DNA from: a virus
Taxonomy: Duplodnaviria; Heunggongvirae; Uroviricota; Caudoviricetes
DNA length: 64,000 nt
Reading direction: 5' to 3' (one strand)
Virus record (IMG/VR): IMGVR_UViG_3300015214_000024
Coordinates: 265,787 to 329,786 of that record
Below, piece after piece: positions 26,897 through 48,416 of this stretch. Position 1 is the first letter of the stretch. Every line of letters begins with the position of its first letter. A program made the position numbers and the translations under genes. A model generated the notes under the pieces. It saw nothing but the letters and a program-made list of their open reading frames with translations, searched no databases and had not been told where the DNA came from.

Positions 26897-27600
26897 AATT
26901 TAAATTTGCTCCAAGTGTTTTTATGTTCTAAACATCGATTTAATATAATCCTTAAGGATTCTGGATCATATACAAAACCAAAATGGGTAGTGTCAACCTC
27001 AATATTCTCACTTATGTCAGTTTCAGTCTCTAAGCAATCCTGATATGGTGCAATAATATCAGCTTTGGAATAGAGAGACGAGAATGGGACCACTGGAATT
27101 TCACCCATATAGTTAGTATATTGATCACAAATTGGATGATCATCGATATCAATACCAATTTTTGTATATTTCTTTCGCATTTCTTCAATGTCAATTTTTT
27201 GCTTGAACGGCGTGCCGAGGGTGATAACTGAATTGACTAGTTCTGGCGACATTTTAGCCAGGCAGCGAGCATAAAAGCCTCCCATACTCCATCCAATTAT
27301 AGTAACGGGGGTTTTATGCTCATCATAAATCCTTACTAATTCTTTATGAATAGTATTAATTAATGAATCACTTGCAATAATATTGGTTCCCTGATTCCAA
27401 GTATAGGGCTTGAATCCACAGGAAAGTAAAGCCGATCTTAGCAATAATGTGGCGTGATCATTAGTTAAAAAGCCAGGAATTACTAAAACTGGCCGGCCGT
27501 CAGCCTCTTCCTTGTATGAGAATGATTCTGCCGAGTCGAGCAAAAAATCAGCTATAAAATTAGGAGTCCTCTTTTTCAATAGATTAAAGAATTCGTCCAT
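26893..27600 (-). CDS. alpha/beta-hydrolase (lipase/esterase)
   Basis: PGFL oxyanion motif, GWSMGG nucleophile elbow, D and H triad. Confidence 0.85.
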   Translation of the reverse strand: MDEFFNLLKKRTPNFIADFLLDSAESFSYKEEADGRPVLVIPGFLTNDHATLLLRSALLSCGFKPYTWNQGTNIIASDSLINTIHKELVRIYDEHKTPVTIIGWSMGGFYARCLAKMSPELVNSVITLGTPFKQKIDIEEMRKKYTKIGIDIDDHPICDQYTNYMGEIPVVPFSSLYSKADIIAPYQDCLETETDISENIEVDTTHFGFVYDPESLRIILNRCLEHKNTWSKFKL

Positions 27601-29210
27601 TAAACTTGTATCCTTTCTTCAACCATCTGAATAAATTGGTCTAAACCAACCATTTCAGCAAATGTACCTACTCTGGGCCCTTGTTCTGAACCAAACACGA
27701 TTTCGTAGATGGCCTTGAACCATTCTTGAAGCTTCTCATAATTAGCTGACTTCCCAATTTCGTAAACAATACTTTGAATTGATTCAGCTGTTGGATTATC
27801 CAACGTCCTAAATTCATCGAGCATTGACGATAGTAGGCCATATTCATATTCAGTTGGTGACCGAAATGAAATCGATCCCGAAAGATGATCATTAAAATAA
27901 TTACCAGCTAACGGAATAATTGAACTGACTTGGTTATTGCCACAATATTGCTCAACAATCTTTCCTACTACTTCTGAATCCGTAATACCTGTTGATCCAA
28001 TCAAGTTCAGCAATAGGCTATAAGATACCTCATTATGTGAAGAATTTACATCGCCATTATGCACGTGGTAAACTGGATTACCAAGCTGTTGGCTGGCCGT
28101 CTGAGTCGCATATAGCTTTAAACTGTTATTATAATCATCCATAGCAATAGGAACAACACCAGCGTGAAGATTCTTCGCTCTAGTTGGCTCGCGATACAAA
28201 TAATATGCGAGACTTTCTTGAGTTCCATATTGAAGCCATTCTTCAATAGTGAAACCATTGCCCTTTGACTTTGAAATCTTTGCTCCATTCTTGTCAAGAA
28301 ATAGTTCATAAGTCAAATTAATTGGTGGGATGCCACCAAGAACTCGACAGATTTGTCCTGAAAGACGGACACTGTCAGTCAAATCCTTACCAGACATTTC
28401 ATAATCAACATCAAAATAGACCCAGCGCATTGCCCAGTCGACCTTCCACTGAAGCTTAGTACGGCCGTTGTGGATATCGACAACGCACGGAGTAGATCCG
28501 AGATTGAACTCCAAAAACCTCTTCCCATTTTCTGTTGAGAGAACAACCGGCACTTGGTTAACGTGTGGGGTCTTGTTTAAACTGACCGAATCGTGGAAAA
28601 CTGGCATAAACGGACTATATGTTTGGCGGCGGTCCTCTCCTAAGGTAGGAAGGATGATATCCAAAATAGCCTGATTGCTATCGAATACTCTGTCCAGCAT
28701 ATTGTTAAACTTGCCAAAACTATAATAATCTGAAGAGCTTACAAAACTCACTCGGCTCCGATTCGGCGAAGAGCCAACAACACTATTATTATAAGTAGCC
28801 AGGATGGCATCAACAAATTCTACCAATCGAGTGTTATTTGCATCAGCAAAGCTGCCGTCTTCTGTTCCATAAGGATTTGGGACCATCGATAGAGGCTCAC
28901 CCAAATGGTCATTCATCCATTCAGGCATTCCATCAGGCACCTTGCGGAAACCATCATAATCGTCACTAAACATAATAAGGCGAGTCTGGTAGGCATTCTG
29001 AGTTAGATCATCAAATGCCTTCATTACCCAAAGTGTACGAACTACTTCAGCAAATGTACCAATGTGGGGAGCGCCAGACGGGCCGTAACCTGATTCGAAG
29101 GTCACAACATCACCTGGCTTCTTGCCCTTACGCTCAATGTGCTTTAGAAGCCTCTTGGCCTCGACGAATGGCCAGGCCTTTGACTCTTCATACACTTGAA
29201 CCATATTCAT
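27600..29210 (-). CDS. lysS: class I lysyl-tRNA synthetase
   Basis: SGYGPSGAPHIGT, DDYDGFRKVP, KLQWKVDWAMRW, KISKSKGN, GPRVG. Confidence 0.95.
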   Translation of the reverse strand: MNMVQVYEESKAWPFVEAKRLLKHIERKGKKPGDVVTFESGYGPSGAPHIGTFAEVVRTLWVMKAFDDLTQNAYQTRLIMFSDDYDGFRKVPDGMPEWMNDHLGEPLSMVPNPYGTEDGSFADANNTRLVEFVDAILATYNNSVVGSSPNRSRVSFVSSSDYYSFGKFNNMLDRVFDSNQAILDIILPTLGEDRRQTYSPFMPVFHDSVSLNKTPHVNQVPVVLSTENGKRFLEFNLGSTPCVVDIHNGRTKLQWKVDWAMRWVYFDVDYEMSGKDLTDSVRLSGQICRVLGGIPPINLTYELFLDKNGAKISKSKGNGFTIEEWLQYGTQESLAYYLYREPTRAKNLHAGVVPIAMDDYNNSLKLYATQTASQQLGNPVYHVHNGDVNSSHNEVSYSLLLNLIGSTGITDSEVVGKIVEQYCGNNQVSSIIPLAGNYFNDHLSGSISFRSPTEYEYGLLSSMLDEFRTLDNPTAESIQSIVYEIGKSANYEKLQEWFKAIYEIVFGSEQGPRVGTFAEMVGLDQFIQMVEERIQV

Positions 29211-31743
29211 TTTCTACGTCCTCGCATCGTTGACACATATCTTTGTCGTTCACCTTAGCATAGTATGTCCTACAACGCAAGCACTTTTCACCATTATAAA
29301 CTTCAAAATGAACCGTTCGGGTTCCGACTTGCTCATTTTTATATTGAGCACAACCTAAAACTTCTTTCCAATCAACAGGGAGCGGAGATTTGAAACATAC
29401 TACCATCTGCTCCATCTGCCATTTTTGTTCGCTACGTTGATCTTCGAAAGCTTTCAATACTTCATCGCGTTCATTTTCGACGAATTCCCAGTACCCTAAA
29501 TTTTCACAGTCTAAATCATTCAAGCAATAGCTTGGATCAAATCCATATTGTGAAACTTCTGCCACCAAAAATGGTGTAGTTGGTTCCATTACATAAAGTA
29601 ACGTTCTGACTAGGCGATCCAACGTGTATAATACTGCCTGCCTGCGATTGCTTCCCTTTGAATCACAATACAAAGAATCTTTGACTTGAGTGAAATAAAA
29701 TTCACTGACCCAGCGCACATATGCCAATGCCTTTCTTACTGTCGGGAAAGTACCACCACATTGACTCTGTACCAATTCTTTAGCTTTATATAATACATAA
29801 CGGTCAACTGGAAGCAGTTCTGCACTTTGATTAACCACTTCGCCATTGAGGTTTGCTAAGCAGAACCTCACCGTGTTACGGACTTTGTCATAATTTGCCT
29901 GTGTTTGCTTGAGCTTTTCTTCATCAAACTCAACATCTGAATCAGCAAACCCGCTCAACAGCCACAGTCTCATAACATCGGCGCCATATTTTTCAAGAAG
30001 ATCTGGTAGCCCGCCACCATTACCAACACTCTTTGACATTTTCTGGCGGCGCTGGAGCACAAATCCGTGAGTGAACACGTTTTTAAAAGGTAATTTGCCA
30101 TAAAGAGCATAATGGACAAGTGCGCTGGACTGGAACCAACCCCGATGCTGATCAGTACCTTCTAAGTACATATCGGCCCGATCTACGTCAGGATATACAG
30201 CTTTTAAACTTGATCCAGAATCAAACCACACATCAAGAACATCCATCACTTTTTGGTATTGGCCGTGATATTTTTCAGGCAAGAAAAAGTCAGCGTCGTG
30301 TTCATACCAAACATCACTACTATGTTCTTTAAACATTTTTACAACATTAGTATTGACCTCAGGATCAACGAGCATTTCTCCAGTTTCATTGTGGAGAAAC
30401 AGGGCCATAGGCACACCCCAAAGACGTTGACGACTTAAACACCATTCAGATCGGTCGCCAAACATAAATTTGAATCGATTAGCATAGCCAGTAGAATTCC
30501 AATTGACTTCGTCAACTTCTTCGAGCAATTTATCCTTGAAAGAATCAAAATTGAAGAACCAATTTTTCTTGGTTTTCACAACTACTGGTTTTTTAGATCG
30601 CCAGGAGACTTGACGTTCCGACACTCGGTGCAACTCATAATAATAAACTAAATCTGGTCGACTTTCGAGGTATTCCTTTACGGCCTGATTTGCTTTATAG
30701 ACGTGGACTTTTACGCCATTGACTTCCATCATAGCGTCATCATCAACCAGCCCTTCAAGATTTAGGTTATACTTTACACCAAGCTTAAAATCGTCAAATC
30801 CGTGTCCAGGTACAACGTGTAAAAAGCCAGACCCAGCGTGTTCATTAACCGAATCATTTTCTTCCAACAGCGGTGACCTACCCCCAAAAGGAGGATTGAC
30901 AAATTTACCTTTTAGTTCATTTGGATCAAAATTTCTAACAAATTCCAAACCAAGCTCTTGGTTGAGCATAAAGCCAGCACTTTCATTCATCACAACATAC
31001 TTGCCAGATGGTGTTTTGCCCATTTTATAGGTTGCATCAGAATTATAAGCTACCGCTTTATTACCAGGCAATGTCCAAGGTGTAGTGGTCCACACTAAAA
31101 CGCTATAATTTTCACCTTCAACTGGAAATTCAACAAATAATGAATCGAGCGGTAAACTTACAGATTCAAGTTCAGCTTCAGCCAATGTAGTCTTTTCTAC
31201 TGGTGACCAATGAACCGGGCGGAATCGCTGTTCCAAAAGGCCACGCTCTTGAAGTCCATAAAGATTCTTCAAAGTTTCAGCTTCGTATTCATAGTCGTGA
31301 GTTTTATAGCATTTATCCCATTCGGCTCTTACACCAAATGATTTAAATTCTTCTTTTTGAACGTCTACCCACGAATCAGCATATGCTCGGCAATCCTTTC
31401 GGAACTGCACCACGTCAGCATCTTTACTCTTTCCAGCTTTAGTGTATTGTTCTTCAACTTTAACTTCGATCGGTAAGCCGTGACAATCCCATCCTGGACG
31501 GAACGATACGGTTTTTCCATTAAAGCGTTCTTGATGACGATTTACAGAATCTTTCAACACTTTGTTCAAAAAGTGTCCAAGGTGTAAATTACCATTTGCA
31601 TAAGGGGGGCCGTCGTGCAACAAAAAATCAAATCCATCAGATTGTGGATGAGTAGTTACTACTTTAGTGAATGTTGTGTCTGACCCAGCCTGCCGTTTAA
31701 GTGGGAAAGAAGTTGATGGTAGAAAAAGATTAAATTTAGACAT
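29188..31743 (-). CDS. ileS: isoleucyl-tRNA synthetase (IleRS1-like, C-terminal Zn finger)
   Basis: HDGPPYANG.LHLGH, WTTTPWTLP, WCLSRQRLWG, EGTDQHRGWF, KMSKS, CxxC..CxxC. Confidence 0.95.
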   Translation of the reverse strand: MSKFNLFLPSTSFPLKRQAGSDTTFTKVVTTHPQSDGFDFLLHDGPPYANGNLHLGHFLNKVLKDSVNRHQERFNGKTVSFRPGWDCHGLPIEVKVEEQYTKAGKSKDADVVQFRKDCRAYADSWVDVQKEEFKSFGVRAEWDKCYKTHDYEYEAETLKNLYGLQERGLLEQRFRPVHWSPVEKTTLAEAELESVSLPLDSLFVEFPVEGENYSVLVWTTTPWTLPGNKAVAYNSDATYKMGKTPSGKYVVMNESAGFMLNQELGLEFVRNFDPNELKGKFVNPPFGGRSPLLEENDSVNEHAGSGFLHVVPGHGFDDFKLGVKYNLNLEGLVDDDAMMEVNGVKVHVYKANQAVKEYLESRPDLVYYYELHRVSERQVSWRSKKPVVVKTKKNWFFNFDSFKDKLLEEVDEVNWNSTGYANRFKFMFGDRSEWCLSRQRLWGVPMALFLHNETGEMLVDPEVNTNVVKMFKEHSSDVWYEHDADFFLPEKYHGQYQKVMDVLDVWFDSGSSLKAVYPDVDRADMYLEGTDQHRGWFQSSALVHYALYGKLPFKNVFTHGFVLQRRQKMSKSVGNGGGLPDLLEKYGADVMRLWLLSGFADSDVEFDEEKLKQTQANYDKVRNTVRFCLANLNGEVVNQSAELLPVDRYVLYKAKELVQSQCGGTFPTVRKALAYVRWVSEFYFTQVKDSLYCDSKGSNRRQAVLYTLDRLVRTLLYVMEPTTPFLVAEVSQYGFDPSYCLNDLDCENLGYWEFVENERDEVLKAFEDQRSEQKWQMEQMVVCFKSPLPVDWKEVLGCAQYKNEQVGTRTVHFEVYNGEKCLRCRTYYAKVNDKDMCQRCEDVENEYGSSV

Positions 31744-31797
31744 TTTAAAAACTCCTATTGAATAAAAATCACAAATTAACTTGGACCAGATAACGTA

Positions 31798-31848
31798 TTA
31801 CCTGGCCTTTATAATTCGTATATTTTTAATCAAATTAAGAGTTTTCAT
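31798..31848 (-). promoter_or_regulatory. Ile-rich leader peptide MKTLNLIKNIRIIKAR (translational attenuator of ileS-lysS)
   Basis: Four Ile codons (ATT, ATA, ATT, ATA); leader nt AAAACTCTTA..TTGATTAAAAAT complementary to ATTTTTATTCAA-TAGGAGTTTT over the ileS SD. Confidence 0.75.
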
Positions 31849-32351
31849 TCCTGTTCTTCTTTAATAACTTCTTTCAAAGCGAGTTCTACAAATTGATCGA
31901 TTGAAATTCCACGAAGTGCAGCAGCAGCTTCGAGCATTTCCTTAACATCGTCATCAAGTTCCAAAGTTAAAACAACCCTCGGGTCATATTCTTCACCTTT
32001 AGGTATTTTCGTAACTTTGTCAATAATGTCGTCAAAATCATCAGTCATATGCCAATTGAGATCTTCACTAAATTCATCCCATTTGATATTACGCTGTTTT
32101 GCTTCTTCCTTATAAGCATCTAAATAGTCCAAGTCAATCCACCTGTAGCGGAGTTCACCTTCATAAGTTTCGCTGATTGAAATTTCATATATTTGCTGTG
32201 TTTGAGTATCAAAAACTGCGCTAATATGAAAATTATCATCTGAACTATCAAGGAATCGTGCATTTGGACCAAAACATTTCCAAAGGAATTCACTTCCGTC
32301 AGTAATTTTGAAATCAATTGCTTTTGTGAAAGCTTCCATTTGTTTTGACAT
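31845..32351 (-). CDS. hypothetical protein with C-terminal ribbon-helix-helix-like segment
   Basis: GGAGG RBS; LELDDDV...AA.RGISIDQFV. Confidence 0.6.
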   Translation of the reverse strand: MSKQMEAFTKAIDFKITDGSEFLWKCFGPNARFLDSSDDNFHISAVFDTQTQQIYEISISETYEGELRYRWIDLDYLDAYKEEAKQRNIKWDEFSEDLNWHMTDDFDDIIDKVTKIPKGEEYDPRVVLTLELDDDVKEMLEAAAALRGISIDQFVELALKEVIKEEQE

Positions 32352-32554
32352 TAGATTGCCTCCAAACAATGCTCAGTGATTGAAACAGCCTTCCAGCCAT
32401 CGCCATATCCATTGTTATATGGCGTATCCAGTTCTACGATGAACACTGTCATACCAGGAGCGTCAAATGCCACTCCGATTGTGGAACCTTTAATACCATC
32501 CATGTCACCGCCAGTACGAACAAGCTTAACACGCTGATTAGGTGAGAATTTCAT
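32351..32554 (-). CDS. small SH3/KOW-like hypothetical protein
   Basis: AAGGA RBS; F.PNQRVK...G..G. Confidence 0.5.
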   Translation of the reverse strand: MKFSPNQRVKLVRTGGDMDGIKGSTIGVAFDAPGMTVFIVELDTPYNNGYGDGWKAVSITEHCLEAI

Positions 32555-32577: not shown

Positions 32578-32661
32578 CGGAGTAGTGGGGATTCGAACCC
32601 CATACCTTGCGGTACCCTCTGTTTTCGAGGCAGTGTTAGAACCTATCTAATTACGTACTCC
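32578..32661 (-). tRNA. tRNA-Ser(CGA), 8/4-type with bulged acceptor stem
   Basis: GGAGTA(C)GT/ACTACTCC-G, 5-bp D stem TTAGA/TCTAA, loop CT-CGA-AA, long V arm, 4-bp T stem GGGG/CCCC; CCA not encoded. Confidence 0.7.
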
Positions 32662-32892
32662 AAAATTGTCAACCAGTTTTACTAATTCTTTTTCAGCCAA
32701 ATACATTTCAACTTTAGTATTGTAAAACCTTAATATTTCTTTATTAAAATTATCAATTCCATATTTTTCAATAGCATATCTTATTCTTTTACCAGAACCC
32801 ATATAACCATCATCGAGATTTTTAGTCGAATGGGCACCAATGTAAAACTTACCATTTATTTGGTTTGTTATTTTATAAACATAGTAAAACAT
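32647..32892 (-). pseudogene. truncated Seg-like GIY-YIG homing endonuclease
   Basis: YYVYKITN..NGKFYIG.H...DDGYMGSG; only 81 aa, runs into the tRNA. Confidence 0.7.
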
Positions 32893-33585: not shown

Positions 33586-34257
33586 TTAAACTACTGTTCT
33601 TCCTTTATACCATCCTATTGGAATTACCATATCCTTTTTAATTTTCTGGTTTTTAGATCCGTCAGTAATCCACATAGTTCCGAATTGTGAATTTTTCCTT
33701 CCAGTTTGGAAGCCATCATTTTTTTCTTTCCATTTTTTAATAGCACTATCAGATTTAGATAATTTACTAAATTCTTTAGCTTTTTCTGGATTCAAGCTAT
33801 GGAATTCTTTCATAGCTTCAGAACCTTTAACCCATCCTTTACATTCCACAAACCGCAATCTTGCTTTTTCAAGTATCCATTCATAACCTGGTTTACCAAA
33901 TGGTGAAATAAATTTATTCCATTCTGCCTTAGTTTCAAATCCTCGATCTTTGTAATAAGAGCCTTCTAAGTTGTATATTGTAAAGCCACCAGTTCCGCCA
34001 AGCATTAAATTATAAGTATTGTTATCTTTTACAAAATCTTCGTTAACTATTTCACGTTCTTTATTATTCATATCATTTTCATTATCAAAAATATATAATG
34101 TTTCTTTATCAAAGTTTTTTATTCCATATTTTTCTATAGCAGATTTTATTAATTTTCCTGAACCCATATAGCCATCATCTAAATCATCAGTAATATGCTT
34201 GCCAATATAGATCTTACCATTTAGTTTGTTTGTTATTTTGTAAATTATATTAAACAT
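33586..34257 (-). mobile_element. Seg-like GIY-YIG homing endonuclease inside the tRNA array
   Basis: IIYKITNKLNGKIYIGKH...DDGYMGSG...YNL..GG; true start ATG 34257 (the upstream in-frame part is tRNA). Confidence 0.85.
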
Positions 34258-34277
34258 AAAAATCCATTCAATTTTTG

Positions 34278-34364
34278 AGGACAGTGTGGGATTCGAACCC
34301 ACGGGACCCTCGCAGGTCCTCCGGTTTTCAAGACCAGTGCAATCGGCCACTCTGCCAACTGTCC
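34278..34364 (-). tRNA. tRNA-Ser(TGA), canonical 7/5, U73
   Basis: GGACAGT/ACTGTCC-T; CTGGT-CTTGAAA-ACCGG; long V arm. Confidence 0.92.
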
Positions 34365-34464: not shown

Positions 34465-34490
34465 AAAAAACCCCCTAGTTTCCTAGGGGG
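34465..34490 (-). terminator. attenuator terminator immediately 5' of the tRNA-Ser array
   Basis: CCCCCTAG-GAAA-CTAGGGGG-TTTTTT ending 3 nt before the first tRNA. Confidence 0.9.
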
Positions 34491-34524
34491 TGTAACAGCA
34501 AACCTATCATTCAATAGATACTGT

Positions 34525-34572
34525 TCACCCCATTGGGATGGACGAACTACTGGATGATGAAATAATGAACAT
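34525..34572 (-). promoter_or_regulatory. serine leader peptide MFIISSSSSSSIPMG (transcription attenuator)
   Basis: AGGA RBS; TCA TCA TCC AGT AGT TCG TCC; alternative 1:2, 2:3 and 3:4 helices; TTGACA promoter at 34631-34636. Confidence 0.9.
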
Positions 34573-34665
34573 TCGTTTAATCTTTCCTGTTTGCTTTAAC
34601 TTTGTTCAGCTTATATTCTATTTAGTATTCTGTCAATAGTAAAATAATAAAAATTCTGATTTATT

Positions 34666-35353: not shown

Positions 35354-36598
35354 TCAAAGGATAATTCGATCTGGAAAATATGGTTGAAGTATTTCAGGTA
35401 TTGCCACCCAGCCATCTGGCTGTTGATAATTTTCCAAAATAGCTACAAGAGTCCGACCAACAGCCAATCCGCTACCATTTAATGTATGGACCAAAGTAGT
35501 CTTTTTATCTCCTGGCAGCTTTACTCGTGCGGCCATACGTCGGGCCTGAAAATCGCCACAATTGCTGATCGAGCTAATTTCACGCCAAGCCTTTTGGCCC
35601 GGAAGCCAAACTTCCAAATCGTAAGTTTTTCTGGCGCCAAATCCCATATCACCCGCTGCTAATAAAACTCGCCTAAATGGTAAATCAAGTTTCTTAAGAA
35701 TCATTTCCGCAGCATTCAGCATATGCTGATGTTCATATCCGCTTTGGTCTGGAGTAGAAATGGTTACCATTTCTACTTTATGGAATTGATGTTGGCGTAT
35801 GAGCCCGTGAGTGTCTCTACCAGCACTGCCTGCTTCGGCCCTAAAGCACGGTGTTAGTCCAACCATACGCAATGGTAAATCACCATAATCCAAAATTTGA
35901 TTGGCAACCAAATTTGTCATTGGCACTTCGCCAGTTGGGATCAAATATCGACCATCTACGGTTTTAAACAAGTCCTCTTCAAATTTTGGAAGCTGACCGG
36001 TACCAAACATCGTTTGCTGATTCACCAAATAAGGAACATCTACTTCAGTAAAACCATATTCCTCAACGTGATGGTCAATCATAAACTGACCAATCACTCG
36101 GTGCAATTTAGCCAATGTGCCAGTCATCACATTAAAGCGAGTCCCTGCGATTTTTGTTGCTTGTTCAAAGTTAAATCCTGGAAGAAGGTGATGCTCTTTG
36201 ATTTCAAAATCAAATTCAGGAATGTCATCCTGATGTACTACAAGATTATTTTCCTCACCACCTTCTGGAACATCGTAGTGTGGAATATTTGGTACCTTAG
36301 CCCAAATGCTATCACGAACATCTTTCAACAAATCAACATTTTTCTTATAATGATCAATTTGCTCATTAGTTGCTTTTGCTTGTTCTTTCAGATCTTCAGC
36401 AGGTAATTTAAGCCTGTATGCATCACCAATTGCTTTATTAAGGTTGTTTCGTTCATTTTCAGCAGCTTGCAACTTTGTTGTATAAAGACGAAATTGCTCA
36501 TCAGCCCAAAACAAATCGTCAATTGCTCCTCCGCCGCGCCCCTTTAATGCACGTTTTACGGCTTCGCGATCAGTTCTGACATCATCAATATTAATCAT
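35354..36598 (-). CDS. serS: seryl-tRNA synthetase
   Basis: N-terminal coiled coil, GTGQLPKFEEDLF, LIPTGEVP, FRAEAGSAGRDT.GLIRQHQF.KVE, EISS.SNC.DFQARR, TLNGSGLAVGR. Confidence 0.97.
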   Translation of the reverse strand: MINIDDVRTDREAVKRALKGRGGGAIDDLFWADEQFRLYTTKLQAAENERNNLNKAIGDAYRLKLPAEDLKEQAKATNEQIDHYKKNVDLLKDVRDSIWAKVPNIPHYDVPEGGEENNLVVHQDDIPEFDFEIKEHHLLPGFNFEQATKIAGTRFNVMTGTLAKLHRVIGQFMIDHHVEEYGFTEVDVPYLVNQQTMFGTGQLPKFEEDLFKTVDGRYLIPTGEVPMTNLVANQILDYGDLPLRMVGLTPCFRAEAGSAGRDTHGLIRQHQFHKVEMVTISTPDQSGYEHQHMLNAAEMILKKLDLPFRRVLLAAGDMGFGARKTYDLEVWLPGQKAWREISSISNCGDFQARRMAARVKLPGDKKTTLVHTLNGSGLAVGRTLVAILENYQQPDGWVAIPEILQPYFPDRIIL

Positions 36599-37244
36599 TC
36601 CAAAAATCCTTCATTCCACCGTTCATATACGACTTGGCTGTAATAATTTTTCCCGTTCTTTCATCCCAAGCCTGATTATCCTGAAAACGAATTGTGCGAA
36701 TTTTATCACCACGCTGGCCAGAGCCACTTTCCTTATACTGTTCAGTCTTTAGACTAGAAAGAACAGCATTATCCATTGATTGTAACTTATTTGCTAGGGC
36801 CTGTCGAGCCTCTTGGTAATTAGATTCTCTAGAACGGCTTTGGCGTACTTCCACCAAACCTGTTGGAATATGGATCAATCTGCAGGAACATTGGTGCTTA
36901 TTTCGGTGTTGGCCGCCTTTACCTGTCCCAGAAAACCATTCTACCCGTAAATCGCTATCGCGTATTTCAGTTTTTTCCATTTTGGCGTCAATTAAAGCGA
37001 CCTTTACTGACGAAGTATGGACTCTGCCCCTGCGCTCAGTTGGAGGTACACGCTGGAAACGATGGCCGCCAACTTCTTTCTTAAGATTGTCGTTTGGTTT
37101 TTTTAGCTCAATAAAATAGCCTTGACCCTCTGGGCCGTGGCGGTGCAGTCAGCCATCAAGAGCTTTGAGGTATGAGTGATACAAATCTTTCGCTAATAAT
37201 TGAGCGTCTTTTCCGCCTTCACCAGGCATAATAACTAATTTCAT
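36591..37244 (-). CDS. RF1-like class I peptide chain release factor (lacks domain 1) with in-frame UGA at codon 32
   Basis: AAGGA RBS and ATG 37244; PGEGG.DA.L, then TGA (37149-37151), then E.GGHRFQRVPPTERRGRVHTS (PxT motif), GKGGQH.NK, R.DKIRT; 218 codons in one frame. Confidence 0.85.
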
Positions 37245-37933: not shown

Positions 37934-38605
37934 ATGTTTATGACGGCTTGGCGATCAATTCGAAACGAAATTGAAGAAATGGATGCTACATTCGTTCTAG
38001 CCATTTCGGGCGGTGTTGATAGTATGGTCCTGTTGGATTTCTTCACGCGAACTGACGCTAATTTCGTTGTAGCACATTTTAACCACAATTTGCAACCTAT
38101 CAATGTAGAAATGCAAAAGCACGTTATTGATTATTGTATTAAGAACAATATCGAACATTACGTCGGCCAGGGGGTGAGTATTAAACTCAATTCTAAGCTT
38201 AATCATACATCAATTGAGGCTGAGGCACGTAAACAACGATATGATTTTCTTGAAGCTGTTGCTAAATCAGTCTCTAACGGTCGCCAGGCGGTTATTGTAA
38301 CTGGCCATCACCAAGATGATCAAGTCGAAACTGTTATGCTTAACTTATTCCGTGGCGTCGGGCTTCAGTCAGTGTTTATGGAAAAGAATAATGGTAGGCA
38401 ATATAGACCATTTTTAGACATTCCAAAATCGGAATTGTTAGAATGTGCTAGAAAGCGTGGCCTTGCTTGGATTGACGATCCAACCAATGCTGAAAACGAT
38501 GCAGAACGTAACTGGCTCCGCAACGAAATTATTCCACAAATTATGGAACGTAGAAACATCAGTAAAACGATTCCACTTTCTATTGAGAAATACCTCAAGA
38601 GTTGA
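37934..38605 (+). CDS. tilS: tRNA(Ile)-lysidine synthetase (catalytic domain only)
   Basis: AISGGVDS, HFNH, EAEARKQRY, TGHHQDDQVET, RPFL, DPTN...RNWLR. Confidence 0.9.
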   Translation: MFMTAWRSIRNEIEEMDATFVLAISGGVDSMVLLDFFTRTDANFVVAHFNHNLQPINVEMQKHVIDYCIKNNIEHYVGQGVSIKLNSKLNHTSIEAEARKQRYDFLEAVAKSVSNGRQAVIVTGHHQDDQVETVMLNLFRGVGLQSVFMEKNNGRQYRPFLDIPKSELLECARKRGLAWIDDPTNAENDAERNWLRNEIIPQIMERRNISKTIPLSIEKYLKS

Positions 38606-47395: not shown

Positions 47396-47779
47396 TTATG
47401 GCTTCCTTGAAGAAATAATTTTAACTATGTCATTAGCACCTTTGGAAACACCAATAGATCCTAATATAATAAAAATAACAGTCCAAAATGATTCCGGAAA
47501 CGCTGCCAATGCTTGGGCAAAGGCCAACAACGTTGCTGGATGAAACCACCCAACACAGAACATAATGACTATCATAAAAAATGCAACCGGACGCGGCCAG
47601 CGCATTATACCATCAGCAGCTTTTTCATTACTTATCACGTCACTAATTCCAGAAGTCAAATTCCCAAATTTAGTTTTGACAGATCTGAACCAGCCCCGAA
47701 TTTTTCCTACTTTTTTTGTAGTTTCAGTTACCACAGTTTCTGCGGTAGCTTCAATACTGGTTTCTTGTTCTTTATCCAT
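47396..47779 (-). CDS. holin-like membrane protein
   Basis: Two TMs, RWPRP, P..FW..I...G..G; GGAGG RBS. Confidence 0.6.
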   Translation of the reverse strand: MDKEQETSIEATAETVVTETTKKVGKIRGWFRSVKTKFGNLTSGISDVISNEKAADGIMRWPRPVAFFMIVIMFCVGWFHPATLLAFAQALAAFPESFWTVIFIILGSIGVSKGANDIVKIISSRKP

Positions 47780-47834
47780 TCTTGGATACCTCCATCTGCA
47801 CCATTATTTATGGTTTTGGAGATATCTGGCAAGA

Positions 47835-48416
47835 TTACTTATAAAGAGTTATGATTGATTCAGGCTGATCTAAAAGTGCTGCCACCAATCTAAGTAGTTC
47901 AGATGGATTATATGACAATCCAAGCTGATATGCATTCTCCACGTAGCCTTGTTGCGATGACATAACTGACATAATTTCAGCCTTATCACGCTCATCCATT
48001 TGATTGAGGTGTAATCTAAATATTTCCATCATTGCAACTAACGATGTAGTGAGGCGGCCATCATTGAGACGATCAAAATGATCTTTCATCCTCCTAACAA
48101 CGTCTGATAGTTTTTCAGACGATCGTCCACCCCAGGATTCTTTCAAATATACATCATCTTCCAGCATATTAATTCTAGTGTCAAAATTAGTTTGCTTTGA
48201 CTCCAATCTATATTTTTCATTTATTAGCATTTGGACATCATTTGATAATCTTTGAACTTCTTTTGTTAAATTTTCATTAGCTTCAACTTGTTTATTCATT
48301 AAACTAACCATTTGAAATATTTGGTCGTGCAATTGGAGCACTGATTCACCAAATAAGCTAAGCTGTTCTTCCGTAGAAGGAAGAAGGGGATGAGCATTAT
48401 TATCAACTAAATCCAT
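47835..48416 (-). CDS. coiled-coil hypothetical protein
   Basis: Heptad pattern. Confidence 0.55.
   Translation of the reverse strand: MDLVDNNAHPLLPSTEEQLSLFGESVLQLHDQIFQMVSLMNKQVEANENLTKEVQRLSNDVQMLINEKYRLESKQTNFDTRINMLEDDVYLKESWGGRSSEKLSDVVRRMKDHFDRLNDGRLTTSLVAMMEIFRLHLNQMDERDKAEIMSVMSSQQGYVENAYQLGLSYNPSELLRLVAALLDQPESIITLYK

Follow-up and report, generated by a model that had tools for sequence, protein, structure and literature searches.

A conserved hairpin that pairs the Shine-Dalgarno of a phage ileS gene, and a 16-codon reading frame that may relay ribosomes through it

Translation of a gene can be coupled to that of its upstream neighbour by a structure that occludes the ribosome-binding site (RBS), as in the MS2 coat-replicase pair and in E. 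coli rpmI-rplT. Short leaders act by translational attenuation in cat-86/cmlA and ermC, the last being a four-segment switch, and the aminoacyl-tRNA synthetase (aaRS) operon pheM-pheST of E. coli is controlled at transcription through a terminator/antiterminator pair. Phage T4 places hairpins that hide the Shine-Dalgarno (SD) sequence on the early transcripts of e, soc and I-TevI, and a late promoter inside the hairpin relieves the block. Huge phages possess many tRNA and aaRS genes. Leaders, attenuators and T-boxes are not mentioned in a survey of huge phages (PMC7162821), and our literature search turned up no publication in which a leader controls phage aaRS genes. Here, we describe a conserved and well-defined RNA switch ahead of a phage IleRS-LysRS operon. 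The window analysed is a stretch of 64,000 nucleotides (positions 265,787 to 329,786 of the IMG/VR record IMGVR_UViG_3300015214_000024), and positions are those of the window unless another sequence is named.

The ileS spacer and its hairpin

The phage record is 455,147 bp long, with 39% GC and 69 predicted tRNAs. On the minus strand the genes run in the order 67-aa ORF, 168-aa ORF, a 101-nt spacer, ileS, lysS, an alpha/beta hydrolase gene and uvdE. The ileS gene (29188..31743, minus) encodes an 851-aa isoleucyl-tRNA synthetase (TIGR00392, 601 bits) and is followed by a class I lysS (27600..29210, minus). The upstream ORF, 168 aa when counted from its ATG (31845..32351, minus; the ORF listing prolongs its 5′ end to a TTG at 32369), gave no Pfam match at threshold, and its C-terminal 35 residues were found to be ribbon-helix-helix-like (RHH-like) below threshold (several RHH Pfam families, residues 134-167, E ~0.004). 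A Glu/Lys-rich tail follows this RHH-like motif. Among the junctions checked, from the 67-aa ORF to uvdE, the one between the 168-aa ORF and ileS is the only one without an overlap; the others overlap by 1 nt (67-aa ORF/168-aa ORF), 23 nt (ileS/lysS, an overlap already recorded in the original prediction), 1 nt (lysS/hydrolase) and 4 nt (hydrolase/uvdE).

Elsewhere in the window, an 81-aa ORF (32647-32892, minus) resembles, at the DNA level, the homing-endonuclease genes of T4-type phages of Klebsiella and Acinetobacter (72% identity, ~217 nt). A SegE-like GIY-YIG ORF (33586-34350, minus) lies within the tRNA-Ser array, and a 129-aa protein (36591-36980, minus) consists of the RF-1 (GGQ) domain alone; its gene and the beginning of serS overlap by 8 nt. 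The phage genome also contains two tRNAs whose anticodon is CUA (of the amber-suppressor kind; the label 'Pyl' comes from ARAGORN) and two tRNA-like genes with abnormal anticodon loops, carrying 4-base and 2-base 'anticodons' (G000:C1:15281-15358, 165512-165586, 183179-183254 and 183417-183491); these may point to stop-codon recoding or frameshift suppression. A polyadenylation signal of the kind described by the giant-virus 'hairpin rule' was dropped as a reading of the ileS spacer because the genome is phage-type, as judged from its T4-type homing-endonuclease similarity, its bacterial-type SDs and its large tRNA set.

It is clear from folding that the spacer is filled by one long hairpin of ~42 bp (31746..31847, minus), which extends from the upstream stop codon to the ileS SD. 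At the base of the hairpin the segment UGAAAACUCUUA (31836..31847, minus), which corresponds to nt 2-13 of a short leader ORF, pairs with UAGGAGUUUUUA, and the ileS SD itself, AGGAG (31752..31756, minus; 8 nt 5′ of the ATG), lies inside the latter and is fully paired. Above this basal pairing three further helical segments, near-unbroken, lead up to an apical 10-bp stem closed by a UACG (UNCG-type) tetraloop (31784..31807, minus). Both structural claims of the original prediction, that the coding sequence of the leader is the anti-SD of ileS and that a UACG-capped hairpin tops the structure, were thereby reproduced.

The hairpin had a minimum free energy (MFE) of -38 to -40.5 kcal/mol, whereas dinucleotide shuffles gave -15 to -18.5 kcal/mol and none of 200 was as low; a 113-nt fold gave -38 kcal/mol against -14.8 ± 2.6 (z = -8.84), and a 141-nt fold gave z = -7.35, again with dinucleotide shuffles. 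By raw MFE the region ranked 9th of the 454 regions upstream of genes in this phage, at a GC content of only 25%, compared with 31-54% in the rest of the top 15. The mean probability that the ileS SD is unpaired in the free RNA was 0.006. When the same-strand gene pairs of the genome with 40-220-nt gaps were compared (109 pairs), all 12 bases of the SD zone were paired with the first 15 nt past the upstream stop in just two, and the ileS spacer is far the stabler of these (-38 kcal/mol over a 101-nt gap vs -13.7 kcal/mol over a 40-nt gap). Folding gave the single hairpin only, and no alternative fold was seen. BLAST and nhmmer searches of the 455-kb genome found no second copy of the element, and this single-copy status ruled out a repeated or mobile palindrome. 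A known RNA family, T-boxes included, was likewise rejected, as an Rfam cmscan at E <= 1 returned only a chance-level hit to sau-63 (19.6 bits vs a gathering score of 100). Neither an intrinsic terminator nor a conserved internal sigma-70 promoter was found in the element; the sequence TATAAAG within the stem was considered as a promoter and set aside, since it is not kept in the relatives L004, L010 and L013.

A search with IleRS returned eleven relatives of 53-78% identity, all metagenomic. The same layout, a 164-168-aa ORF, a 92-106-nt spacer and ileS, is present in seven of them (L002, L003, L004, L005, L006, L010/L011 and L013), the upstream ORF being 52-82% identical. The hairpin was adopted in 6 of 6 foldable relatives (z from -5.4 to -10.0), L006 being left out of the folding owing to an assembly gap in the apex. 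In the alignment 93.8% of cells were standard pairs, compared with 34-56% when partners were slid by 1-3 columns; four pairs had changed on both sides in a compensatory way, and the covariation score of 0.156 exceeded that of shuffled alignments (0.124 ± 0.012), being reached by 3 of 500. The apical helix was 100% paired across the relatives, with G-C to A-U and G-U to G-C or A-U changes, and its loop was always of the UNCG type (UACG, or UCCG in L013). The conservation that the original prediction had looked for in related phages was found, and the hairpin that sequesters the SD is a functional RNA that has been conserved.

In the IleRS tree the hairpin carriers form two well-supported clades within an unresolved polytomy that also holds hairpin-less phages. 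In the spacer-less relatives (L008/L009, L012, L014/L015 and L016) a different ORF lies upstream and runs 4-8 nt into ileS. Comparison with L002 and L003 also revealed a recombination breakpoint at the apical stem (31784-31807, minus): L003 is identical to the window over the last part of the 168-aa ORF and all of the 5′ arm, whereas its 3′ arm is nearly identical to that of L002 (48 of 49 positions). No further relatives were obtained from a single-protein scan of IMG/VR, DNA-pattern scans gave only chance-level matches (56 in IMG/VR and 23 in JGI metagenomes), and no similar leader was found in GenBank phages.

The 16-codon frame in the 5′ arm

The 5′ arm of the hairpin is occupied by a 16-codon short ORF (sORF), MKTLNLIKNIRIIKAR followed by TAA (31798..31848, minus). 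Its ATG (31848..31846) shares the bases TG with the TGA stop of the 168-aa ORF, so that on the minus strand the junction reads ATGA, and the leader does begin within the upstream stop as had been claimed. Its own TAA (31800..31798) falls in the apical stem, on the 5′ side. Start codon (ATG), stop codon (TAA) and open frame were all kept in 7 of 7 relatives, also across a 3-nt indel; the peptides of relatives include MKTFNLIKNIRIIKTR, MKTTNLIKNIRIIQTR, MKTFNLKIIRITKAK and MKTLNLNIIFRITKTK. The form of the upstream stop varies around the constant ATG, being ATGA, TAATG, TGA-T-ATG (L010) or, in L013, a stop that lies 11 nt into the sORF, and it is placed -4 to +14 nt from the sORF AUG in 8 of 8 sequences. 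The leader has no independent SD, its AUG being within the base of the helix and overlapping the upstream stop; a well-spaced AAGGA was seen in L010 only.

The two arms were found to differ in how they change. Codon 3 is ACT, ACG or ACC, all Thr, across the relatives, and two of these forms break a base pair; the only indel in the 5′ arm is one of 3 nt, compared with indels of 1-3 nt in the 3′ arm; and the mean identity is 0.84 in the 5′ arm vs 0.75 in the 3′ arm. Part of this asymmetry is due to the recombination breakpoint, which lies at the apex; as the window and L003 have the same 5′ arm through recombination, the difference in identity was given little weight. The synonymy at codon 3 and the 3-nt indel hint at constraint on the peptide or the codons themselves, and these features suggest, from few events, that the sORF is translated. 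Joining of the upstream ORF to the sORF, by bypass in the style of T4 gene 60 or by read-through or frameshifting into one fused product, was also considered and rejected, no landing-codon match and no slippery site being present. The last sense codon of the upstream ORF varies among GAA, AAG, GGA and TCT.

Coupling, isoleucine sensing and other readings

The effect of a ribosome on the hairpin was modelled by constraint folding, in which a 27-nt ribosome footprint was forced single-stranded and the cost of opening the ileS RBS was computed for the window and its relatives. In the window this cost was 13.7 kcal/mol for free RNA, 3.3-4.5 kcal/mol with the A site at codons 0-9, 8-10 kcal/mol at codons 10-16 and 13.2 kcal/mol with the ribosome at the sORF stop codon. 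The relatives behaved in the same manner, with a return to the free value at the sORF stop; in them the free RNA gave 9-16.5 kcal/mol, codons 0-9 mostly 2.3-5.5 kcal/mol (up to 9.2 in L004 and 7.8 in L002 at the edges) and codons 10-13 4-11 kcal/mol. A ribosome terminating at the upstream stop falls within the range of codons 0-9, at a modelled cost of ~4.3 kcal/mol, and the anti-SD, nt 2-13 from the sORF AUG, is within the footprint of this ribosome. The model predicts that the terminating ribosome would open the SD as well as one stalled in the leader.

In the reading that we prefer, and for which we consider the chances about even, the ileS spacer couples translation of ileS to that of the upstream ORF through its structure, the sORF serving as a relay for re-initiating ribosomes. 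On the free mRNA, the hairpin would pair the ileS SD with the 13 nt that follow or overlap the upstream stop, and new 30S subunits would be unable to load because the SD is paired. The ribosome that ends the 168-aa ORF would melt exactly the basal segment and expose the SD; the same ribosome would probably re-initiate at the overlapping AUG (AUGA) and translate the sORF up the 5′ arm, keeping the SD free over the first ~9 codons, and its termination in the apical stem would let the hairpin close again. With its RBS hidden by the hairpin, IleRS would probably be made only when ribosomes arrive from the upstream gene, and we infer that ileS output would track upstream translation; on this reading the amino acids that the sORF encodes would not be what counts. 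In favour of coupling are also the overlaps at the other junctions checked in this run of genes, the direct overlap of ileS in the spacer-less relatives and the position of the upstream stop close to the sORF AUG in every sequence. In our view, coupling is the simpler mechanism for the same anatomy, and even if the element is a coupling device only, the output of a phage aaRS would be tied to the translation of a neighbouring gene.

Similar pairing was observed in three or four other short spacers of the genome, of 40-55 nt, where the stop-adjacent bases pair with the next SD and no sORF is present (G000:C1 about 188476-189140, 263580-264083 and 356203-357266; window 47396-48416). From their predicted folds these are likely to be further coupling hairpins, and their presence speaks for coupling at ileS. 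By their shorter span they also weigh against coupling as the whole explanation at ileS, where a 100-nt spacer with a conserved ORF exceeds the need of simple coupling.

The original prediction read the leader as an Ile-sensing attenuator: a shortage of charged tRNA-Ile, or of lysidine-modified tRNA-Ile2 in the case of AUA, would stall ribosomes at the Ile codons of a translated sORF, and the stalled ribosomes would hold the hairpin open and raise IleRS synthesis. Such sensing would add to coupling and would not exclude it, and we regard it as possible but doubtful. The leader as anti-SD within a stable and conserved hairpin has stood; the isoleucine and lysine content has fared less well. Ile is encoded at codons 7, 10, 12 and 13 of MKTLNLIKNIRIIKAR, all within 7 consecutive codons, with ATA at codons 10 and 13. 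Four Ile in 15 leader codons has P = 0.019 against the amino-acid frequency of the genome (Ile 7.2% of codons) and P = 0.12 against the base composition of the leader. This Ile fraction was reached by 2.8% of 727 noncoding sORFs of 12-25 codons in this genome and by 9% of those with GC <= 0.30 (n = 78), and 4 Ile in a 7-codon window were found in 1.1-1.3% of the noncoding sORFs. The enrichment is marginal against an AT-rich background; the excess over such a background, on which the original prediction had staked the idea, exists on the genome-wide measure and is not significant on those matched for composition, which comes close to what that prediction had named as refuting it. On the other side, the counts were held at 3-4 Ile and 2 ATA in all 7 relatives despite shifting positions, including a tandem ATA-ATA at codons 8-9 in L010 and L013, although these relatives amount to essentially two deep lineages.

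The two ATA codons are indeed present, but they cannot be called rare, since ATA makes up 20.5% of the Ile codons of this phage, and two ATA among four Ile is unremarkable (P ~0.19, hand binomial calculation). The phage does carry tilS, as had been stated: a gene for the catalytic N-domain of TilS lies at 37934..38605 on the plus strand (TIGR02432, 167.5 bits vs a cut-off of 93.6). Together with a phage CAU tRNA whose nearest match is the phage's own tRNA-Ile(GAU), it speaks for the sensor. The suggestion that the leader may also sense Lys was rejected: Lys codons number 3-4 with or without lysS after ileS, and they persist in L010 (four) and L013 (three), where ileS is directly followed by the hydrolase gene with no lysS between. 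The direct-overlap relatives have no Ile-rich stretch ahead of ileS, which also counts against sensing.

Footprint modelling divided the claim that a ribosome stalled at any of the four Ile codons would cover the anti-SD. A stall at the first Ile codon gave an opening cost of 3-5 kcal/mol, and in every sequence this codon stands where a stall lowers the cost; the position predicted to free the SD is Ile7 (ATA8 and ATA9 in L010 and L013). Stalls at the later Ile codons lowered the cost by ~4-5 kcal/mol. They would give partial relief only, because the anti-SD is left free to re-pair behind the stalled ribosome, and in the clade of the window this applies to three of the four Ile codons (modelled cost 8-10 kcal/mol); Ile10 would free the SD only in some relatives, and Ile12 and Ile13 would not unless ribosomes queue.

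The prior for an Ile sensor is raised by striking cognate leaders elsewhere in the same genome, which also argues against coupling alone. Directly 5′ of the first of four tRNA-Ser genes (34465-34636, minus), a 15-codon leader, MFIISSSSSSSIPMG (34572..34525, minus), has an unbroken run of seven Ser codons, of both the TCN and the AGY box, with a TTGACA-17-TAAGCT promoter and an AGGAAAG SD ahead and a GC-rich terminator with a T-tract behind (34490..34465). From its sequence it is a textbook-looking leader-peptide attenuator, much stronger than the ileS leader, and would be unusual in controlling tRNA genes. A His/Tyr/Glu leader, MSHSVYHYEYEREYLRPGESW, precedes Glu and Tyr tRNAs (G000:180103; region 180030-180168), and a Leu/Asn/Pro leader, MLNLVLNPVNLLGLNPNQLPVGDSGTAF, precedes Leu, Pro and Asn tRNAs and a leuS-like gene (G000:191195; region 191121-191281). 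A 34-codon mixed leader was seen ahead of a large mixed tRNA block (G000:C1:209646-209830). These sites share one cassette, consisting of a TTGACA..ACTAAATA or TTGACA..(G)GACTAAATA promoter with an (A)GGAAAG SD, a cognate leader and a terminator (G000 180030, 191121, 209646 and 300422, the last on the minus strand). The cassette is absent before the 168-aa ORF, the sORF and ileS, and the ileS leader is not of the same build because it lacks the cassette and its enrichment is much lower, which tells against the sensor.

A wider version of the idea takes the element for an Ile-tRNA sensor that acts at translation initiation and not at transcription termination, is fed by ribosomes that re-initiate after the upstream gene and belongs to a set of cognate leaders spread over the genome (Ser, His/Tyr/Glu, Leu/Asn/Pro and Ile) that would switch on phage tRNAs and aaRSs when host charged-tRNA pools fail. 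We put this forward tentatively and would sooner expect it to be wrong than right. If the Ile-tRNA sensor were true, the element would be a translation-level viral counterpart of the pheM-pheST attenuator and, together with the other leaders, would point to phages monitoring the charged-tRNA pools of their hosts.

An RNA-processing or stability element, with the sORF incidental, appears unlikely to us. The near-perfect ~42-bp duplex, uninterrupted over more than two helical turns and with a very stable UNCG-capped apex, would be a substrate of host RNase III, and the hairpin lies downstream of a tRNA array whose transcript needs processing anyway. Phages T7 and lambda use intergenic RNase III sites, and at some of these the cut activates translation; cleavage here would part the ileS-lysS transcript from that of the gene upstream and could expose the SD or stabilise the end so formed. 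Processing, however, does not account for the constant placement of the helix base at the upstream stop and the SD, for the retention of the ATG and the open frame, or for the direct gene overlap that replaces the element in relatives. A protein-binding operator is very improbable. In its favour, the stem-loop at the apex is conserved, and the ligand could be the product of the upstream ORF, with its RHH-like C-terminus, or IleRS itself in a feedback like that of ThrRS on E. coli thrS mRNA, an established case of aaRS autoregulation through an mRNA operator, but RHH proteins are DNA binders and the 4-nt UACG/UCCG loop is unlike the 7-nt anticodon loop of tRNA-Ile.

Comparison with known systems

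As in T4 e, soc and I-TevI, a phage hairpin hides an SD on read-through transcripts; unlike those genes, the ileS hairpin has no conserved promoter-like motif inside it. The actinobacterial translational ileS T-box riboswitches, which respond to tRNA-Ile charging, likewise sequester the ileS SD in an upstream RNA structure, whereas the phage element shows no T-box match (Rfam, E <= 1), no specifier loop and no tRNA platform, and any sensing would have to go through the ribosome. With pheM-pheST it shares the position of an aaRS gene behind a leader of ~14-16 codons with several cognate codons, although these are fewer (4 of 16 vs 5 of 14 in pheM). The terminator/antiterminator pair with a U-tract that marks classical transcriptional attenuators is not present at the ileS leader, which has no terminator, and control would act at translation initiation.

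The translational attenuation leaders of cat-86/cmlA and ermC are nearer in design, in that a short leader ORF enters the 5′ arm of an SD-sequestering hairpin and a ribosome held there is predicted to free the SD. The ileS leader differs in having no SD or promoter of its own and relying on the upstream ORF, and in forming a single hairpin; the proposed signal would be the supply of Ile-tRNA, and a drug-dependent arrest peptide is not known for it. Similar to MS2 coat-replicase and rpmI-rplT, the SD of the second gene pairs with sequence where the first frame ends and, according to the modelling, would be opened only by a ribosome translating or terminating upstream. The ileS arrangement departs from both in that the cistrons are 100 nt apart and bridged by one long hairpin, the whole 5′ arm is a conserved, stop-overlapping 16-codon sORF, and the regulated gene is a phage aaRS.
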